This document shows, piece after piece, positions 27,934-36,128 of a DNA stretch of 64,000 nucleotides. The notes under the pieces are model-generated. The model was not told the DNA's origin and did no database searches. It saw nothing but the letters and a program-made list of their open reading frames with translations. The stretch is from Spirochaetia bacterium (GTDB taxonomy: Bacteria > Spirochaetota > Spirochaetia > SZUA-6 > Bin103): NCBI GenBank assembly GCA_965208575.1, contig CBDBOV010000006.1:1568001-1632000 (forward strand), read 5' to 3'. Positions within the stretch are counted from its first letter, which is position 1. The number at the start of each line of letters is the position of its first letter. A program made the position numbers and the translations under genes.

Positions 27934-27975
27934 TCGATTGCCTTGTGTTTGTTCGAGCCATTCGAACGATGTTCG

Positions 27976-28047
27976 AGCGGGAAACGGGATTCGAACCCGC
28001 GACTTCCACCTTGGCAAGGTGGAGCTCTACCACTGAGCTATTCCCGC
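27976..28047 (-). tRNA. tRNA-Gly(GCC)
   Basis: GCGGGAATAGCTCAGTGGTAGAGC...TTGCCAA...GGTTCGAATCCCGTTTCCCGCT. Confidence 0.95.
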
Positions 28048-28051
28048 TTGT

Positions 28052-28133
28052 TGCGAGAGAAGGGACTCGAACCCTTACGCCTCGCGGCACCAGATCCTAA
28101 ATCTGGCGTGTATACCAGTTTCACCACTCTCGC
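28052..28133 (-). tRNA. tRNA-Leu(TAG)
   Basis: GCGAGAGTGGTGAAACTGGTA...TTTAGGA, long variable arm, GGTTCGAGTCC. Confidence 0.95.
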
Positions 28134-28174
28134 CATTGCCGAGGCACGCGCCCCCGGAACCTCGGCTGCCATGC

Positions 28175-28247
28175 TGAGCCGTGAAGGGATCGAACCTTCG
28201 ACCCGCAGATTAAGAGTCTGCTGCTCTACCAGCTGAGCTAACGGCCC
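28175..28247 (-). tRNA. tRNA-Lys(CTT)
   Basis: GGGCCGTTAGCTCAGCTGGTAGAGC...CTCTTAA...GGTTCGATCCC. Confidence 0.95.
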
Positions 28248-28367
28248 TCGATGTCGCAACGGACGCTGCCTCTTCTTGTGCTCCTCCTCGTGTGCCCTGC
28301 TCATCCGTGTGCCCCCTCCCCGGGTACCCTTGGGCGCCGGAGAGGCGGTTCCGCACGATTGCTCGCT

Positions 28368-28442
<75 letters not shown>

Positions 28443-28550
28443 CACTGTTGCGCGTAGCGGATCCGGTAACGTACCTGGTGGCCTGCGCAACCCGCCATCC
28501 GCTGGCGCCCGGCTGCCGCCGGACGCCCGCCCAGGTACCACCAGAGGGTG

Positions 28551-28624
28551 GGTGGGTGATGGGGCTTGAACCCACAACTTCCAGATCCACAGTCTGGTGC
28601 TCTACCTATTGAACTACACCCACC
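28551..28624 (-). tRNA. tRNA-His(GTG)
   Basis: G-1 then GTGGGTGTAGTTCAATAGGTAGAGC...CTGTGGA...GGTTCAAGCCC. Confidence 0.93.
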
Positions 28625-29311: not shown

Positions 29312-29869
29312 CTAGAGACCGATGTCGTCGGCCACTTCGCGCATCGCCAGAATGACCGTACGGATCAGGTCGTTCAGGTCCGTATCGAGCATTCCGGCGC
29401 CGCGTTCGATCACCTCGCGGTCCACGCCGGCGGCGAAGTTGGCGTTCTTCCACTTCTTCCTGACCGACTTCACCTCCAGGTCGCGCACGCTGCGCGATGG
29501 GCGCACCAGGGCGCAGGCGGTCACGAAACCGGTCAGCTCGTCGATCGCGTACAGGGTCTTTTCCAGGTCGGAGAGCGGCTCGACGTCGGTGCAGATCTGC
29601 CAGCCGTGCGAAATCACCGCGCGCACGTATTCGTCCGGCCAGCCGGCGGCGCGCAGGATCTGCTCGGTCTTGCTGCAGTGCTGCTCGGGGAACTTCTCCC
29701 AGTCGAGGTCGTGCACCAGCCCGATCACCTCCCACGGCTCGGGCTCCTCGCCGCGTTCGCGGGCCACGTAGCCCATGGTGGCGGCCACGGCGCGGCAGTG
29801 GTTGCGCAGCGCCGGGTTCTCAATGTATTGCTCCAGGAGCCGTTCGGCGTCGGTTCGGGTCGGTACCAT
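29312..29869 (-). CDS. HD-domain (HDIG-like) hydrolase
   Basis: [40 protein letters not shown]. Confidence 0.85.
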
Positions 29870-30013
29870 GGCACCGATTGTACGTGCCGGGCGCGCACAA
29901 TGCACCCCGGCGGGGCCCGGCGGGCGCCCCGGAACGGCACGGCGGTGACGGCAGTCACGGCAGTGGCCGCGGATGACTTCGAGAGGGACGCGGCGGTATG
30001 TTTCGCTGACTTC

Positions 30014-31549
30014 ATGGCCAATCTCCTCAGTTCCTACCTGGCGGCGACTCCGCCCGAGCACGTGACGGCGCCGATGGCCGCCTACGTTGCCGCCCTCGAC
30101 CAGATGTACGACGGGTCCCCGGACGTCGCCGCCGCGGTGGTGCGCGAACTCGCCGACCAGCGCGCTCACCTGAAGCTGATCGCCAGCGAGAACTACGCTT
30201 CGCTCGCGGTGCAGGCCGCCATGGGCAACCTGCTCACCGACAAGTACGCCGAGGGCGTGCCCGGGCACCGCTTCTACGCCGGCTGCGCCAACGTCGACGA
30301 GGTGGAGCAGCGCGCGGCGCATCTGGCGTGCGAGCTGTTCGGCGCCGAGCACGCCTACGTGCAGCCGCACAGCGGCGCCGACGCCAACCTGGTGGCGTAC
30401 TGGGCCATTCTGGCCACGCGCGTGGAGCAGCCCCGGCTGGCCGACCTGCGGGCGAAGTCCGCGCTGGCGCTGAGCGAGACCGACTGGCAGCGGCTGCGCG
30501 CGGAGCTGGGCAATCAGCGCCTGCTGGGCATGGACCTGGGCGCCGGCGGCCACCTGACCCACGGCTACCGGCTGAACGCGTCCGGGCGCATGTTCGAGTG
30601 CCACTCGTACGGCGTGGACCCGGACAGCGGATTGCTGGACTACGACGCGCTGGAGCGCCAGGCGTGCGAGGTGCGCCCGCTGATCCTGCTGGCCGGTTAC
30701 AGCTCCTACCCGCGTGCCCTGGACTTCCGCCGCCTGCGCGCCATCGCCGACGCCGCGGAGGCGGTGCTGATGGTGGACATGGCCCACTTCGCCGGGCTGG
30801 TGGCCGGCGGCGCGCTTGCCGGTGACCATGATCCGGTGCCGTTCGCCGACGTGGTGACCTCCACCACCCACAAGACCCTGCGCGGCGCCCGCGGCGGCCT
30901 GGTGCTGTGCCGCGGCGAGTTCGCCGAGGCGGTGGACCGCGGCTGTCCGCTGGTGCTCGGCGGGCCGCTGCCGCAGATGCTGGCCGCCAAGGCGGTGGCG
31001 TTCGCCGAGGCGAACCGCCCCGAGTTCGCAAGCTACGCCCGGCAGGTGGTGGCCAACGCCAAGGCGCTGGCGGACGGGTTGCTGGCACGCGGGCTGGCGC
31101 TGGTGACCGGCGGCACCGACAACCACCTGCTGGTGCTGGACGTGGCGCAGTGCGGGGTGACCGGCAGGCAGGCGGAATCGGCGCTGCGCGACGCCGCCGT
31201 CATGGCCAACCGCAACGCCATCCCCGGCGACCGCAACGGGCCGTGGTATACCTCCGGGCTGCGCCTGGGCACCCCGGCACTGACCACGCTCGGCATGCGC
31301 GAGGAGCAGATGGAGCAGGTGGCGGCGCAGATCGCGCGCGTGCTCGATGCCGTGCAGCCGGCGCCGGTCACGCGCGGCAAGCTCGCCGGCACTCCGAGCC
31401 GCAGCCGCTACCGCCTGCCCGCCGAGGTAGCCGGCGGGGTGCGCGCCGACGTGGCCCGCCTGCTGGCCGGCTATCCCGCCTATCCGGGCCTCGACCTGGA
31501 CGTGCTGCAGACCCTGCTGGCCGACGCCGACGGCAGGTGCTCAGGTTAG
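30014..31549 (+). CDS. glyA: Serine hydroxymethyltransferase (long form)
   Basis: [36 protein letters not shown]. Confidence 0.95.
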
Positions 31550-33643
31550 GGTAGCTATACTCGCCCTCAATTCGGCTAGTTCGGCAACGATATCGGGTCG
31601 TCTCCGGACCTCTCGTTCCACCTCCTGCCATTGCTCGAATTGCGTGATGAGGGTACCGAGATGGCCGGAGTTACGCTTCAGTACATCGTTCACTACGGCC
31701 GGCGTGGCACCGTTCCGGGAAGCGTTGAGGATACAGATCGCAACCATGCGGTGATCTCCTCCCAGGAAATCCAGATCCTGAGACAGGACTTGCGCGTACT
31801 CTTCAGAGCATCGTGTGGATGTTTCGGAAGCGTCTGGCGCTACGTCCAGCTCGCAATAAACCATCGGGTGCCAGCAGAACAACCGCTGGAGGTGGATCTC
31901 GATAGATTCCGACAAATGACTCAGTGTCATCGTGAGCCAACATTCTCTCGTGCAGTCGAACAATGAGCGCCACAACACCCGCGCCTCATCGGAACGAGAG
32001 TTGGGCGGTGAGAGCAACCAAGCAACTGCCGACACTCCGACCGCGAGAAGAAAGAGAGAGGGAGCAAGTGCATCGCTGTCGTTCGTCCGGGTCCAGTGCT
32101 GGACGCGTCGGCGCTGCTCAACCAGCAAATCCCATGATTGGCGCCATCGCTCGGAGGGATTCGGTTGGTTCGCCACCAAGCTACCGAGGTAGCGTGCCGG
32201 CATGCCGTCAAGGCCCTCTCCTACATTCGTTTCCAGTTCGAATCCAGCGTGGCGCGAAGCCAGCAACCGATCGAACAAGCACAAGCGTTCCCGCTCCACA
32301 TCACCGCACGAGTTGTCATTCGCAAAATCGACCAAGCGCATTGCGAGTAGCGCGCCAAGGCGATGATCGGGCGAATCGTCACGCGGTGCGGGCCGGCCCG
32401 GGGCGATCTCGCCGCCAGGGGGCAGCGTGGAGAAGTCGACCTGATCAGCGATCGTGCCGGTGGTAAGGCCAGCCTTCGCGAGGCCCACGGCCACCCATTC
32501 GATCAGATCAGCTTGCGGGATGCGCCGATCGGAGCTCTGTCGAGTGAATCCAAGGTGGGCGCGCTGTTGACGTTCATCGCCGAGCTTCGTGAACAGCCAC
32601 TGTTCAGCGAGGAACTGGCCGTCAGACCGGTCCATGATGACTCTGCCAAGCTGTTTGATCCATGGCAGGAGAGTGCGCTTCACTTTTTCAAGAACCTGCG
32701 GTCTAGTATCGTCCGGGCTATCCGCACATTCTACTCCCCATAGCGCGTCACAGTGATCACCCACGACCTGAAGTACGAGTAATGCGAACGGGTGATGGTT
32801 CCACGATCGCCCATCATCGCTGCATGGAGGCGCCTTCTCGAGCAAAGCGGCGATTTCCTCGCGGTCATGGATAACTGGTGATCGAAAGAGAATCTGCTGT
32901 ATCGGAAGCGGAAACTCCAAACGGTCCAAACAATCAACTATTTCGTCTCTGGCCTCGGCAAGGAGCCCGGGAATCATGCTCAGGAGCTCATCGTGGAAGT
33001 TTACGAACTCAAACTCCTTGAGTCTTTCAATCGACGGCTCCTTACTCCACGCGTCAGCGGCCTGCCTCAGCCCTTCCCGGTCTTGACTTAGAAACGTGCC
33101 AATACCAGGATCTTCATTGATTTCGTTGACCCGTGACTCGAGCAGGTCAATGATTATGCGGCGAACCGACTGAGATCGACGAATCAGATCTCGTAACGAA
33201 TCGACAAAGCAGGAGGCGAGGAAGAACTCATGACCGATCACATTCCATAATTTGGGAACGAGTAGTCTGATCTGCTCGCTGTCCCGCTCTAGTGCGTCCA
33301 CGAGAGCCTTCCCAAACAGCCGGCCCATGACGTCTCGTTGGGAGTGATCACGCCGTTCGATCACCGCCCTGAACCCCGCCTCTAGGGTCTGGCGTTGCCG
33401 AGGATCCGAAATGGCGTGGAATGCTTCGTCCGGATACCGGGTGGTAAGCACCGCGGTGAAAGTAGCGAGGCCGTTTCCTCGGTCTCCGGAATCGAGCACG
33501 TCGGCTGCAAACAGCACGTCGCGGCACCACTCGGCTAGACCGACGACCATCGCTTCCGCGTCGACGACGCGTGCGGCCGCTTCGGACGCATCTTGGAGCC
33601 TCTTGTCGATGCGATGTTGCTCGAGTCTCGGGTCACGCATCAT
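31541..33643 (-). CDS. Hypothetical ~700-aa protein (third gene of the PLD-like island)
   Basis: Long lower-GC ORF with a GGAG RBS. Its start overlaps the upstream gene's end. No motif recognised. Confidence 0.8.
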
Positions 33644-34271
33644 TTCGTCTCCAACATTCCTCGAAAAAGGGGACTGCACGTGTCGCCGTTTCCGGCCACG
33701 GCCCGCTCACTGCCGTCAATCCGGAGTGCCCACCGCCGACGGTCGCGCCGAAGTGCCAGAGGCCCCCGTCGATGATAGCAAACCGATCATGCAGGAACGG
33801 GTAACGACCTGTGTCGAGGATCGCGCGCCAGTGAACCTCCACTTGGCGGCTGTCATGCCGCTCTTGGTTGCAGCTCCATGTGAGCATGTTCGCCAGTCGT
33901 GTCCTGACGACATCTCTTAGACGTCCCCTCCCCGTAAGCAGCCGCACGTCGTGGGCTTGGCTGGAAACCAAAGCGCCACCCAGAATATCGGCGCCCTGCT
34001 TGTCGAAGTGACGATCAAGCACGAACACATGCACCTCGGCACCCACTACGGCCTCCTCGAAGGCGATCAGACTGAGTTCGTTGCCAGCTTCGATTGAATC
34101 CCTCCTGGCACGGATTGCGTCCGCATCAGGAAAATGAGGGACGTCATGACGGTCCATGCGCTCTCCATATCTGATCGAGGGCCAGAGCAACTGCGGCCCT
34201 ACCGATGGTGTCGGAAGCTGCTCAACCGCTACCCGCGGGGCGACACCGGCTTTCGGCTGCAGAGGGGTCAT
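33633..34271 (-). CDS. Single-domain PLD-superfamily-like protein (HDRF variant)
   Basis: VFVLDRHF...VRLLT...LHDRFAIIDGGLWHFGATVGG. Confidence 0.7.
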   Translation of the reverse strand: MTPLQPKAGVAPRVAVEQLPTPSVGPQLLWPSIRYGERMDRHDVPHFPDADAIRARRDSIEAGNELSLIAFEEAVVGAEVHVFVLDRHFDKQGADILGGALVSSQAHDVRLLTGRGRLRDVVRTRLANMLTWSCNQERHDSRQVEVHWRAILDTGRYPFLHDRFAIIDGGLWHFGATVGGGHSGLTAVSGPWPETATRAVPFFEECWRRNDA

Positions 34272-34307
34272 GCACTCTCGCCGGGTGCCGTCACAACGGT
34301 CGACGCA

Positions 34308-35879
34308 TCATACGGCGTGGTCCTCGTGCACTGGTAACAACTCCTGGTCGGCACGGTCGGCTAACCACTCCGAGAGAGGACGCGCCTGCAGCCAGAACGA
34401 TTCGAGCCGCTCGACGACCGGTTCGGGGTCAGGCAACTTGACGATCATACCTGCCCGCTCCCCGATGCTGTTCAGTGAATTGCCTGAGAACCAGACGCTT
34501 CCGTCTATCACCAGGAAGCGATCGTGTACGGGTGGCGAATCTCCGAGGATCCTTATTTCCGGCTTGCGGGAATAGTCGTCGAACGTAGTCGTTTTAATCT
34601 TCTGAAGGTTCGATCCCGCTTCAAGCGCAGTCTCACCTAAGTCGGAATTCTTGAGACCCCTTGTAGAACTGAGGATACGAATGTGCACTCCGCTACGACT
34701 AGTAGCGTGACCAAACGCTAGTAATTCACGTCCGGCGAAATATGGATCCACAATGAATACCGCGTCGCGTGCCGAGCCAATTCTCGCACGTACAAACTGT
34801 GTCGCCTCTTGTGGAGTTTTGTAGAACCATTCTTGATCATAACCTTTGGCTGTCTGTCGACGAGAGCGTCGCATCTCCGCCTCCACAATCCGCGATAACG
34901 GATTGCGCGCCGTTTCTCCTATGATACTCTCTACTGTATCGCCGACTTCGTCTACTTGGTACCGCTCAAGCGGCCGCCGACGCCCTCCTGCGGGTACCTC
35001 AACCGTCTTTCGTCTCCGTATCATCCCTATACTCGTGCGGATCGATCTAACGAAAGGAGACGGTTTGCTCCAATACAAGAGACCGAACACAGGGTGAGTG
35101 ATTGAGATACCTTCCTTGAAAATCCTGGTGGGAAAAGAAGTAACCTTGATCGGATCGTTGTCGAACTCGTGCACCTCAGGAGAGAGTCGACCGCGGACCC
35201 GTTCGTTCGTTATTTCCAATCGCAGCCCCTTGGGACACTGTCCTTGGCGTGTTACTACTCTGTATGCTACGGTCTCAACCGTATGCGTGTCCGTTGCGTT
35301 GCGGAGCGATCGATCGACTGACCGGAAGACAGGATTGGGTGCTGCTATACAAATGGCTCCCTGATATTCGCTATAGGTATCAATGATGTCAAAACCCAAC
35401 CAATCCTCCAACTCTCTACGATTCCTGTCGGATTTTATAACATCTCGAACTTCGGCAGGAATAGAATCTCGGGGGAACAGAGAGTGTGATCGCGCGCTAA
35501 CCATCCAGTCCGGCACAAAAGGAAGGTCGTTGGATGTGATGGTCTGTGGCCAGCACGGCTCTTGGACGAATGCGCCTGTGGACAGTGTAGCGCCGTCACC
35601 AGGTGTGGGAGTATTCGGATCGCACGGGAGAGTTATTGGGTTTCCTGCGGTTGCACTCCTATACCACTCGATCCCCTCCGTCGATTGCATTAAGAAGCGA
35701 CGATAGTAGAGGTACTTCCGTCCGCTTGACGTGGCGCGATGTGTGTATTCTGGAGACCCGACCGCGTCGGGGAACTCATTCGGCCGCAGTTCGACCAAGC
35801 CGAACAGCAGATGGCGCAGGTGATCGTCCCGGAACCAAGCAAGGTGGATGACGGCCTGACCATACCCAGTGCTCTCCAT
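34308..35879 (-). CDS. VPA1262-like protein with a C-terminal PLD-like (HDRF) domain
   Basis: VFIVDPYF...IRILSS...VHDRFLVIDGSVWFSGNSLNSIG; GGAGG RBS. The VPA1262 resemblance is from recall only. Confidence 0.72.
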   Translation of the reverse strand: MESTGYGQAVIHLAWFRDDHLRHLLFGLVELRPNEFPDAVGSPEYTHRATSSGRKYLYYRRFLMQSTEGIEWYRSATAGNPITLPCDPNTPTPGDGATLSTGAFVQEPCWPQTITSNDLPFVPDWMVSARSHSLFPRDSIPAEVRDVIKSDRNRRELEDWLGFDIIDTYSEYQGAICIAAPNPVFRSVDRSLRNATDTHTVETVAYRVVTRQGQCPKGLRLEITNERVRGRLSPEVHEFDNDPIKVTSFPTRIFKEGISITHPVFGLLYWSKPSPFVRSIRTSIGMIRRRKTVEVPAGGRRRPLERYQVDEVGDTVESIIGETARNPLSRIVEAEMRRSRRQTAKGYDQEWFYKTPQEATQFVRARIGSARDAVFIVDPYFAGRELLAFGHATSRSGVHIRILSSTRGLKNSDLGETALEAGSNLQKIKTTTFDDYSRKPEIRILGDSPPVHDRFLVIDGSVWFSGNSLNSIGERAGMIVKLPDPEPVVERLESFWLQARPLSEWLADRADQELLPVHEDHAV

Positions 35880-35962
35880 GATGTTCCTCCGTTCCGAGCA
35901 AGGGTACCGCTTGCAGCCGCCAGTGCGACCGCAACGCGCAGCGTTCCCTCCTCAAGCAAACT

Positions 35963-36036
35963 CGCGTCCAGCGCGACTCGAACGCGCGACCCGCAGCTTA
36001 GAAGGCTGCTGCTCTATCCGACTGAGCTATGGACGC
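35963..36036 (-). tRNA. tRNA-Arg(TCT)
   Basis: GCGTCCATAGCTCAGTCGGATAGAGC...CTTCTAA...GTTCGAGTC. Confidence 0.93.
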
Positions 36037-36055: not shown

Positions 36056-36128
36056 TCGGGATGAGAGGACTCGAACCTCCGATCTCCTGCTCCCAAAGCA
36101 GGTGCCCTAGCCGCTGGGCTACATCCCG
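36056..36128 (-). tRNA. tRNA-Pro(TGG)
   Basis: CGGGATGTAGCCCAGCGGCTAGGGC...TTTGGGA...GGTTCGAGTCC. Confidence 0.93.

Follow-up and report, generated by a model that had tools for sequence, protein, structure and literature searches.

Three consecutive genes in the genome of a Spirochaetia bacterium form one unit that is inherited together, is tightly or translationally coupled, and moves among unrelated genomes, plasmids and viral contigs. They lie in a 64,000-nucleotide stretch of contig CBDBOV010000006.1 (assembly GCA_965208575.1, positions 1,568,001 to 1,632,000 of the forward strand; hereafter the window, whose numbering is used throughout), where they are a foreign, horizontally mobile insert between glyA and the gene for tRNA-Arg(TCT). 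Genes 1 and 2 encode two different proteins of the phospholipase D (PLD) type, both carrying a His-Asp-Arg (HDR) motif, and gene 3 encodes a long helical protein. As gene 1 is kin to the VPA1262 family, renamed Juno in a recent preprint (bioRxiv 10.64898/2026.08.01.741415), we read the trio, with moderate confidence, as a self-contained mobile operon and a multi-gene relative of the single-protein Juno, set between glyA and tRNA-Arg(TCT) and predicted to act against phages. The evidence that the three genes form a unit is strong, and a role in defence is plausible. A defence-like module at this place had been proposed from the letters of the window alone (the original prediction).

34308-35879, minus strand: gene 1, open reading frame (ORF) of 523 amino acids (aa)
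33633-34271, minus strand: gene 2, ORF of 212 aa
31541-33679, minus strand: gene 3, ORF of 712 aa from a GTG start; likely 31541..33640 and 699 aa, judged by the length of relatives

The start of gene 3 is probably Met13 at 33640, because relatives in the databases are 699-703 aa long.

The three genes are inherited as one unit

The trio is no chance finding: at E<=0.001 the three proteins had 348, 588 and 40 matching relatives, respectively. Species-representative genomes were scanned with a gene 2 alignment as seed, which gave 45 loci, and in 38 of these genes 1, 2 and 3 stood in that order on one strand. Six of the other seven loci were cut by contig ends, with the order kept in the visible part, and the seventh held an orphan gene 2 homologue (L006:6522-7229) with neither gene 1 nor gene 3 nearby, inside a 10-kb contig of a gammaproteobacterial metagenome-assembled genome (MAG). 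By record titles, the carriers belong to the Pseudomonadota, Binatia, Latescibacterota, Nitrospirota, Acidobacteriota, Actinobacteria and Elusimicrobia and include a spirochaete. Beyond these genomes, the trio was present on all four IMG/VR (predicted viral) contigs found, one of them cut after gene 2, in both metagenome loci seeded with a narrow gene 3 alignment, and in three of five plasmid loci examined, those of Klebsiella variicola, Azospirillum argentinense and Burkholderia glumae; the five were drawn from nine plasmid records matched by gene 1, and genes 2 and 3 are annotated as hypothetical on these plasmids. The possibility that the three genes do not keep company elsewhere, which the original prediction had named as grounds for giving it up, is thus answered by 38 of 45 loci and by the plasmids and viral contigs.

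Four of the 38 trio loci (L002, L031, L035 and L040) look decayed or truncated. Pseudomonas cichorii ICMP 3353 (L040:7001-7635) has a frameshift in gene 2, L035 has a gene 1 without its N-terminus, and the gene 3 of L002 is down to 560 aa; the decayed loci also include an Ideonella MAG copy with a split gene 1 and a truncated gene 3.

Among 493 non-overlapping ORFs in the loci, only the families of genes 1 and 2 and of gene 3 recur. Large upstream proteins were considered as a conserved fourth gene and rejected, as the ~1,310-aa proteins upstream in L028 and L043 are unrelated to the upstream protein of L048. The stop codon of gene 1 overlaps the start of gene 2 by 4 nt in 17 of the 38 loci. 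When pairwise distances were compared across the 34 intact loci and the window, the matrices of the three genes correlated with Spearman coefficients of 0.79-0.86, and none of 999 permutations reached so high a value. Gene 3 was the fastest-evolving of the three, with a median pairwise identity of 17%, as against 28% for gene 1 and 32% for gene 2, and from this divergence BLAST was too weak to find it in most loci; an iterated hidden Markov model (HMM) of gene 3 had matches in 47 loci, in each case to the third gene alone. A tree of PLD domains separated gene 1, gene 2 and Juno into three clean groups (supports 93/85, 99/97 and 98/98), and the mirrored sub-topologies of genes 1 and 2 within it point to one old duplication.

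Gene 1 joins a VPA1262 N-terminal module to a PLD-fold domain

The original prediction had likened gene 1 to VPA1262-type island proteins. Gene 1 indeed matched the NCBIfam model NF040700 (VPA1262 N-terminal domain) at 3.8e-62 and 210.6 bits, far above the cut-off of 80 bits, over profile positions 3-476 of 478. In its AlphaFold2 model (predicted local distance difference test, pLDDT, 88.5; predicted template modelling score, pTM, 0.77) aa 1-321 are rich in beta strands and include a sandwich resembling immunoglobulin and fibronectin type III domains (aa 181-279, Z 8-9); a long helix then leads to a domain of PLD fold at the C-terminus.

34344..34853, minus strand: PLD-fold domain of gene 1, aa 343-512 (AlphaFold2 model, Foldseek and VIA-align)
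34470..34526, minus strand: HDR motif of gene 1, a variant of the HKD motif, aa 452-470, HDRFLVIDGSVWFSGNSLN
33729..33791, minus strand: HDR motif of gene 2, aa 161-181, HDRFAIIDGGLWHFGATVGGG

When aa 343-512 of gene 1 were compared with known structures by Foldseek, the matches were the nucleases NucT (6ehi, 4e-6), SauUSI (7clg) and Nuc (1byr, 9.6e-6, with a TM-score of 0.66 of the target), with a probability of 1.00. VIA-align gave a similar picture for this domain, with Z scores of 13.7 for SauUSI, 13.5 for both Nuc and NucT, 11.8 for Zucchini and 10.1 for BfiI, and with non-catalytic PLD-like proteins scoring 13.3/13.0 (FAM83), 11.9 (TrmB/TrmBL2) and 10.4 (MITD1). The Pfam PLDc_2 model reached 26.5 bits on gene 1, just below its gathering cut-off of 27, and did not match gene 2.

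Gene 2 is a stand-alone protein with a usual size of ~200-230 aa, a conserved N-terminal extension of ~70 aa and no match in Pfam, NCBIfam or PHROG. Its relationship to the PLD domain of gene 1 was found by hhalign (probability 97.3%, E 1.6e-11, 101 columns), which aligned aa 74-179 of gene 2 to aa 366-470 of gene 1; the PLD fold of gene 2 is assigned by this profile homology. The family falls into 292 clusters when grouped at 50% identity; the best 150 of the 292 are all <=400 aa, with no fused form among them. The prediction that both HDRF regions would adopt a PLD fold therefore holds, by a model with PLD matches for gene 1 and by homology for gene 2, and the motifs it had quoted were located in both proteins: DPYF at aa 378-381 and HDRFLVIDGSVWFSGNSLN in gene 1, and DRHF at aa 86-89 and HDRFAIIDGGLWHFG at aa 161-175 in gene 2.

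PLD enzymes have the consensus HxK(x)4D(x)6GSxN. In place of HxK(x)4D, genes 1 and 2 carry an invariant H-D-R-F-x3-D block, and both keep the DP(Y/H)F strand. The HDR triplet was present in every sequence of the PLD tree (35 of 35 for gene 1, 35 of 35 for gene 2 and seven of seven for Juno), and the canonical HKD motif with its catalytic Lys is absent from genes 1 and 2, the Lys being replaced by Arg. Across 60 aligned gene 1 homologues H452, D453, R454, F455, D459, G466, S468, L469 and G473 are invariant, and the motif tail G-N-S-L-N is kept. Similarly, H161, D162, R163, F164, A165, D168, L171-G175 and V178-G181 are invariant in 31 gene 2 homologues; here the tail is G-S/A-T-V, without the Asn of GSxN, and the HDR block is the most conserved part of the protein (0.69 bits per column). 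Pfam MIT_C (PF16565), a family to which HDR variants had been linked, gave no match at E<=1 for either gene, and the resemblance is limited to structure (the MITD1 score above) and to Atlas features, which scored 0.89.

Profiles of all three genes gave no relevant match below E 0.005 in sequence searches of the PDB, and PHROGs gave none for any of the three.

Gene 3 is modelled as a helical solenoid

The AlphaFold2 model of gene 3 (pLDDT 87.0, pTM 0.85) consists of helices only and forms an all-alpha solenoid. Foldseek found nothing in the PDB at E<=1e-3, and the Atlas features were weak (0.84, DUF6138). Specific structural kin were sought with VIA, in comparisons that barely covered residues 1-335, and rejected, as Z scores were <=11.1, within the range of this tool for generic helical repeats; the C-terminal arm of Avs4 fell to the same objection (Z 10.2). 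Gene 3, in which no motif had been recognised from the sequence, thus retains that description, as a solenoid model with no specific match in sequence or structure.

Single-gene and other architectures of the VPA1262 family

Single Juno genes of Pantoea agglomerans and Vibrio parahaemolyticus cut plaques >100-fold for four of 12 coliphages, as given in the accessible part of the preprint, which describes a phenotype and in which no mechanism is seen (10.64898/2026.08.01.741415). The tested Juno proteins are presumably of the long form, because of their NCBI product name and because an amplicon of 1851 nt lies inside VPA1262 (PMC1464126, primer table). The NCBIfam model of full-length VPA1262, NF040699, has 1026 positions and a cut-off of 325 bits; two genomic long forms, of 1103 and 1052 aa, matched it. 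When the 1103-aa protein was used as a tblastn query, five plasmids were found to carry proteins of 1110-1135 aa, all solitary, of which four are annotated as VPA1262 family protein and one as hypothetical. Each long form has one HDR(Y/M) motif, and the DP(Y/F)F strand with an HDR-type PLD motif was present in all seven examined.

In a sample of 401 genomes of one order, seven carried NF040700 above its cut-off: two as long forms, three as trios, one as a pair of 534 and 483 aa, and one with an in-frame TAG. NF040699 had 0 matches in 401 genomes of the class of genome G001, a count from which absence does not follow. The pair (L068:7773-10818) joins a 534-aa NF040700 protein to a 483-aa partner that matches the profiles of neither gene 2 nor gene 3, and is a further architecture of the same superfamily. 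The copy with one in-frame TAG (L055, G031:C1:250215-251588) scored 282.9 bits with NF040700, had no gene 2 or gene 3 match in its 1.5-kb flanks, and is probably a pseudogene.

As the full-length VPA1262 family now bears the name Juno and has been shown to protect against phages, the module is a relative of a named system. The word "uncharacterised" in the original prediction consequently stands for one part of the claim and falls for another: the three-gene arrangement matches no PADLOC system beyond weak hits to PLD domains, and no description of it was found in literature searches, but gene 1 is kin to the named Juno (10.64898/2026.08.01.741415).

The insert and its site

31550..35962: islet of 4.4 kb, from the glyA stop to the 3' end of tRNA-Arg
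35963-36036, minus strand: tRNA-Arg(TCT), by ARAGORN, its 3' end abutting the insert
36056-36128, minus strand: tRNA-Pro(TGG), by ARAGORN, upstream member of the tRNA pair
29606-31549, plus strand: glyA ORF (serine hydroxymethyltransferase, SHMT; Pfam PF00464, 1.8e-117), convergent housekeeping flank
36186-36157, minus strand: promoter-like site, from a scan at chance level

Gene 1 starts 83 nt from the 3' end of tRNA-Arg, and the stop of gene 3 overlaps the 3' end of glyA by 9 nt. GC content is 0.50-0.63 across 31500-35750 and 0.69-0.75 in the flanks, and GC content at third codon positions (GC3) is 0.57-0.65 in the three genes versus 0.87-0.94 in five flanking genes. The ORFs, GC and GC3 thus agree with the initial description of three co-oriented, packed, low-GC genes wedged between glyA and the tRNA. 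In four genomes of the same genus (G404, G410, G412 and G413) the site is empty, with the end of glyA ~20-40 nt from tRNA-Arg(tct), and gene 2 was present in one of 40 relatives searched (G409, of the same genus) and in the window's own genome; in G409 the genes adjoin glyA in the arrangement of the window. Mobility follows from this patchy distribution, the empty sites and the GC3 contrast. In line with the point of the original prediction that tRNA 3' ends are island hotspots, the insert abuts such an end and the site is empty in these four relatives. A 6413-nt contig from a sponge metagenome covers glyA, the trio and the tRNA at ~92-95% likeness.

Searches for an att-like direct repeat at the insert ends found none, no integrase or mobility gene is among the islet ORFs, and a promoter and terminator scan of the region did not rise above shuffles (two promoters found, 1.5 expected). 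In one RNA-library run, contigs over parts of all three genes were found at 85-95% likeness; such contigs are no proof of transcription, the library may contain DNA, and gaps in the cover carry no meaning. In the RNA-library run X24 one contig fuses 31521 to 35962, weakly, as its side is only 29 nt. Over 31500-31560 glyA ends in codons unlike those of the relatives with an empty site, and the C-terminus of glyA appears to have been reshaped by the insertion junction. Elsewhere in the window, five tRNA genes (Gly, Leu, Lys, Arg-tcg and His) adjoin trigger factor at 27975-28623, and the many overlapping long ORFs listed near them are artefacts of high GC.

Defence genes in the neighbourhood of trio loci

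We scanned the flanks of 40 loci with PADLOC (217 ORFs of >=150 aa within 5.5 kb, at E<=1e-12; the six ORFs of L006 were excluded, and two large ORFs lying upstream were included manually). Matches were found in the flanks of 17 of the 40 loci, a raw count with no background rate, in keeping with the expectation that the trio would often lie near defence genes. The matches were to type I and type IIG restriction-modification, Wadjet JetC/JetD, Septu PtuA/PtuB, NsnABC, IetA, SoFic, PDC-S01, S02, S03 and S37, and DpdE/DrmD-like and DrmMI-like genes, together with the less specific QatD, RtcR, TnsB/TniQ and a viperin-like radical-SAM protein. The trio proteins themselves matched no PADLOC model except weakly, on the PLD domains of genes 1 and 2; a match to an already named system was among the outcomes that the original prediction had listed as refuting it.

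In Rheinheimera sp. A13L (L022:1163-11281) TnsB-like and TniQ-like genes enclose the trio, which looks like cargo of a Tn7-like element; IetA follows a few kb later. In two Nitrospirota loci (L028:77-5325 and L043:226-5570) it directly follows a DpdE/DrmD-like SNF2 helicase gene and a gene for a ~1,310-aa DrmMI-like/type IIG methyltransferase, co-oriented and overlapping; the latter protein is 60% identical between the two loci. These may be DISARM-like hybrids in which the trio supplies the PLD part.

How the module may work, and other readings of it

As gene 1 is kin to Juno, the module is probably a multi-gene form of immunity of the Juno kind. It would defend against phages or other invading DNA, with an effector that is a putative PLD-type phosphodiesterase, most likely a nuclease. 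By analogy with Nuc, BfiI and Zucchini, which build a two-lobed active site from two identical chains, the PLD domain of gene 1 and gene 2 could each supply one lobe, and the fast-evolving gene 3 could bind a phage-derived trigger or restrain the effector until infection. A more specific version, which we put forward only tentatively, makes the trio a distinct anti-phage system: an HDR pseudo-heterodimer of genes 1 and 2, switched on by the gene 3 solenoid as a sensor of phage proteins (like the tetratricopeptide repeat (TPR)-like arms of Avs). Its HDR chemistry, shared with Juno, would be directed not at bulk DNA but, for example, at a nucleotide signal or a particular nucleic-acid end. If that version is true, PLD-based immunity would gain a new branch, with forms of one, two and three genes.

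Several results weigh against the reading of the trio as a Juno-like defence operon whose two PLD proteins share an active site. At E<=1 gene 1 matches NF040700 only and not NF040699, a model on which true long forms score 387-973 bits, and the idea that the trio is a Juno protein split into pieces found no support: the C-terminal half of Juno (seven long forms) compared by hhalign with gene 3 and gene 2 gave E 0.18 and 0.22, and hmmsearch gave 0.039 and 0.0022, the second value coming from the PLD region alone. The correlated divergence of the three genes is a sign of co-inheritance, not of contact. The flanks in the window are housekeeping genes (SelR, SHMT, dicarboxylate symporter, glycosyltransferase, shikimate kinase), and 23 of the 40 scanned loci have no PADLOC neighbour. 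The replacement of Lys by Arg in every member and the missing GSxN Asn in gene 2 make hydrolytic activity only putative. On two plasmids, Methylorubrum extorquens CM4 pCMU01 (L093) and Rhizobium tumorigenes pRt1078 (L094), gene 1 is directly followed by a gene 3 homologue without gene 2 (gene 3 HMM 2.9e-36 and 5.2e-07, respectively), from which it follows that gene 2 is an add-on in a large subgroup and not an obligatory half. The core of the family is gene 1 with a helical partner.

This last point leads to the view, which we find rather doubtful as a full account, that genes 1 and 3 are also the core of the defence, with gene 2 a regulatory or decoy PLD paralogue (for example, capping the dimer face of gene 1 until triggered), or with each PLD protein forming its own homodimer. 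The gene 1 sequences of the two pair plasmids group together among trio gene 1 sequences in the FastTree topology, gene 2 has its extra conserved N-terminal ~70 aa as well as the loss of the Asn, and the known single-HKD enzymes homodimerise, all of which would suit such a core. The conservation of the gene 2 HDR block is what would be expected of an active or ligand-binding site, however, and the strict 1:1 coupling of genes 1 and 2, with the 4-nt overlap, fits a stoichiometric partner. It is unlikely, to our judgement, that the HDR-type PLD domains are binding modules and not hydrolases, in the manner of MITD1, FAM83 and TrmB, so that the system would bind or sequester a phosphate-bearing ligand or nucleic acid. 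The Arg that replaces the catalytic Lys in every examined sequence of gene 1, gene 2 and Juno, the non-catalytic FAM83 along with TrmB/TrmBL2 and MITD1 among the structural neighbours, and the sub-threshold PLDc_2 score speak for it; nevertheless, genes 1 and 2 keep the His, Asp and Gly/Ser of the motif without exception, nucleases (SauUSI, Nuc and NucT) head the structural matches, and an Arg can presumably still bind phosphate.

That the module is not immunity at all, and instead benefits the mobile elements that carry it (through addiction, through the maintenance of plasmids or islands, or in DNA processing) or acts in conflict between bacteria, we consider very unlikely. It does occur on conjugative plasmids, in the Tn7-like context of L022 (TnsB/TniQ) and on predicted viral contigs, and Nuc, a PLD nuclease borne on a plasmid, is close to it in structure. 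Yet the flanks are not conserved, so the module does not depend on a single type of element; features of secretion or of immunity pairs are absent, the islet has no mobility gene, and for Juno, the closest relative to have been characterised, an effect against phages was shown directly (10.64898/2026.08.01.741415).

Under the preferred reading, a multi-gene relative of Juno with a predicted anti-phage role, the module divides a Juno-like protein into pieces that can be taken apart (the VPA1262 front half, which bears one HDR-PLD lobe; another HDR-PLD lobe, free-standing; and the helical partner), so the roles of the parts are open to genetic test. The module is widespread, as the 292 clusters of gene 2 alone indicate; if it proves phage-protective, a common system would be added to the defence catalogues, along with a natural hetero-paralogous PLD site.

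Comparison with known systems

The single-HKD nucleases Nuc (1byr/1bys), NucT (6ehi), BfiI (2c1l), SauUSI (7clg) and Zucchini (4ggj) share the fold of the gene 1 domain (Z 10-13.7, rmsd, root-mean-square deviation, about 3 A over 137-151 residues) and, like the trio PLD proteins, have one motif per chain. Such enzymes homodimerise, two chains being needed per site. They differ in sequence (7-17% identity to the gene 1 domain) and in the motif itself, where their HxK is HxR in the trio; and whereas they use identical chains, in the trio two different paralogues could supply the two lobes.

DISARM class 1 consists of DrmD, DrmMI, DrmA, DrmB and the PLD protein DrmC. Two of the 40 loci (L028 and L043) recall it, with the trio behind DrmD-like and DrmMI-like genes, but no trio protein matches a Drm model. 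PADLOC PDC-S05 gave weak matches to the PLD region of gene 1 (6.5e-8, 30.1 bits, profile positions 175-292 of 306) and to gene 2 (0.007). It is a single-gene candidate of ~300 aa, and the match covers the PLD domain only; a tested cold-seep example of PDC-S05 is described with a Virulence_RhuM domain (10.1101/2024.09.26.614923).

The two-gene relatives on pCMU01 and pRt1078 share with the trio a gene 1 followed by a helical gene 3 homologue, and the trio adds a PLD paralogue between them; on pCMU01 the pair is itself followed by an unrelated 260-aa gene and a SIR2-family gene. The closest named system is Juno. Gene 1 has the N-terminal NF040700 module of ~480 residues, including the DP(Y/F)F strand and the HDR-type PLD motif, and both Juno and the trio are patchy cargo of islands or plasmids. 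Juno is one gene of about 1,050-1,135 aa, solitary in the five plasmid loci examined, and lacks the Asp of HxRxxxxD, whereas the trio is a 523-aa protein with two conserved partner genes, and genes 1 and 2 both keep that Asp.

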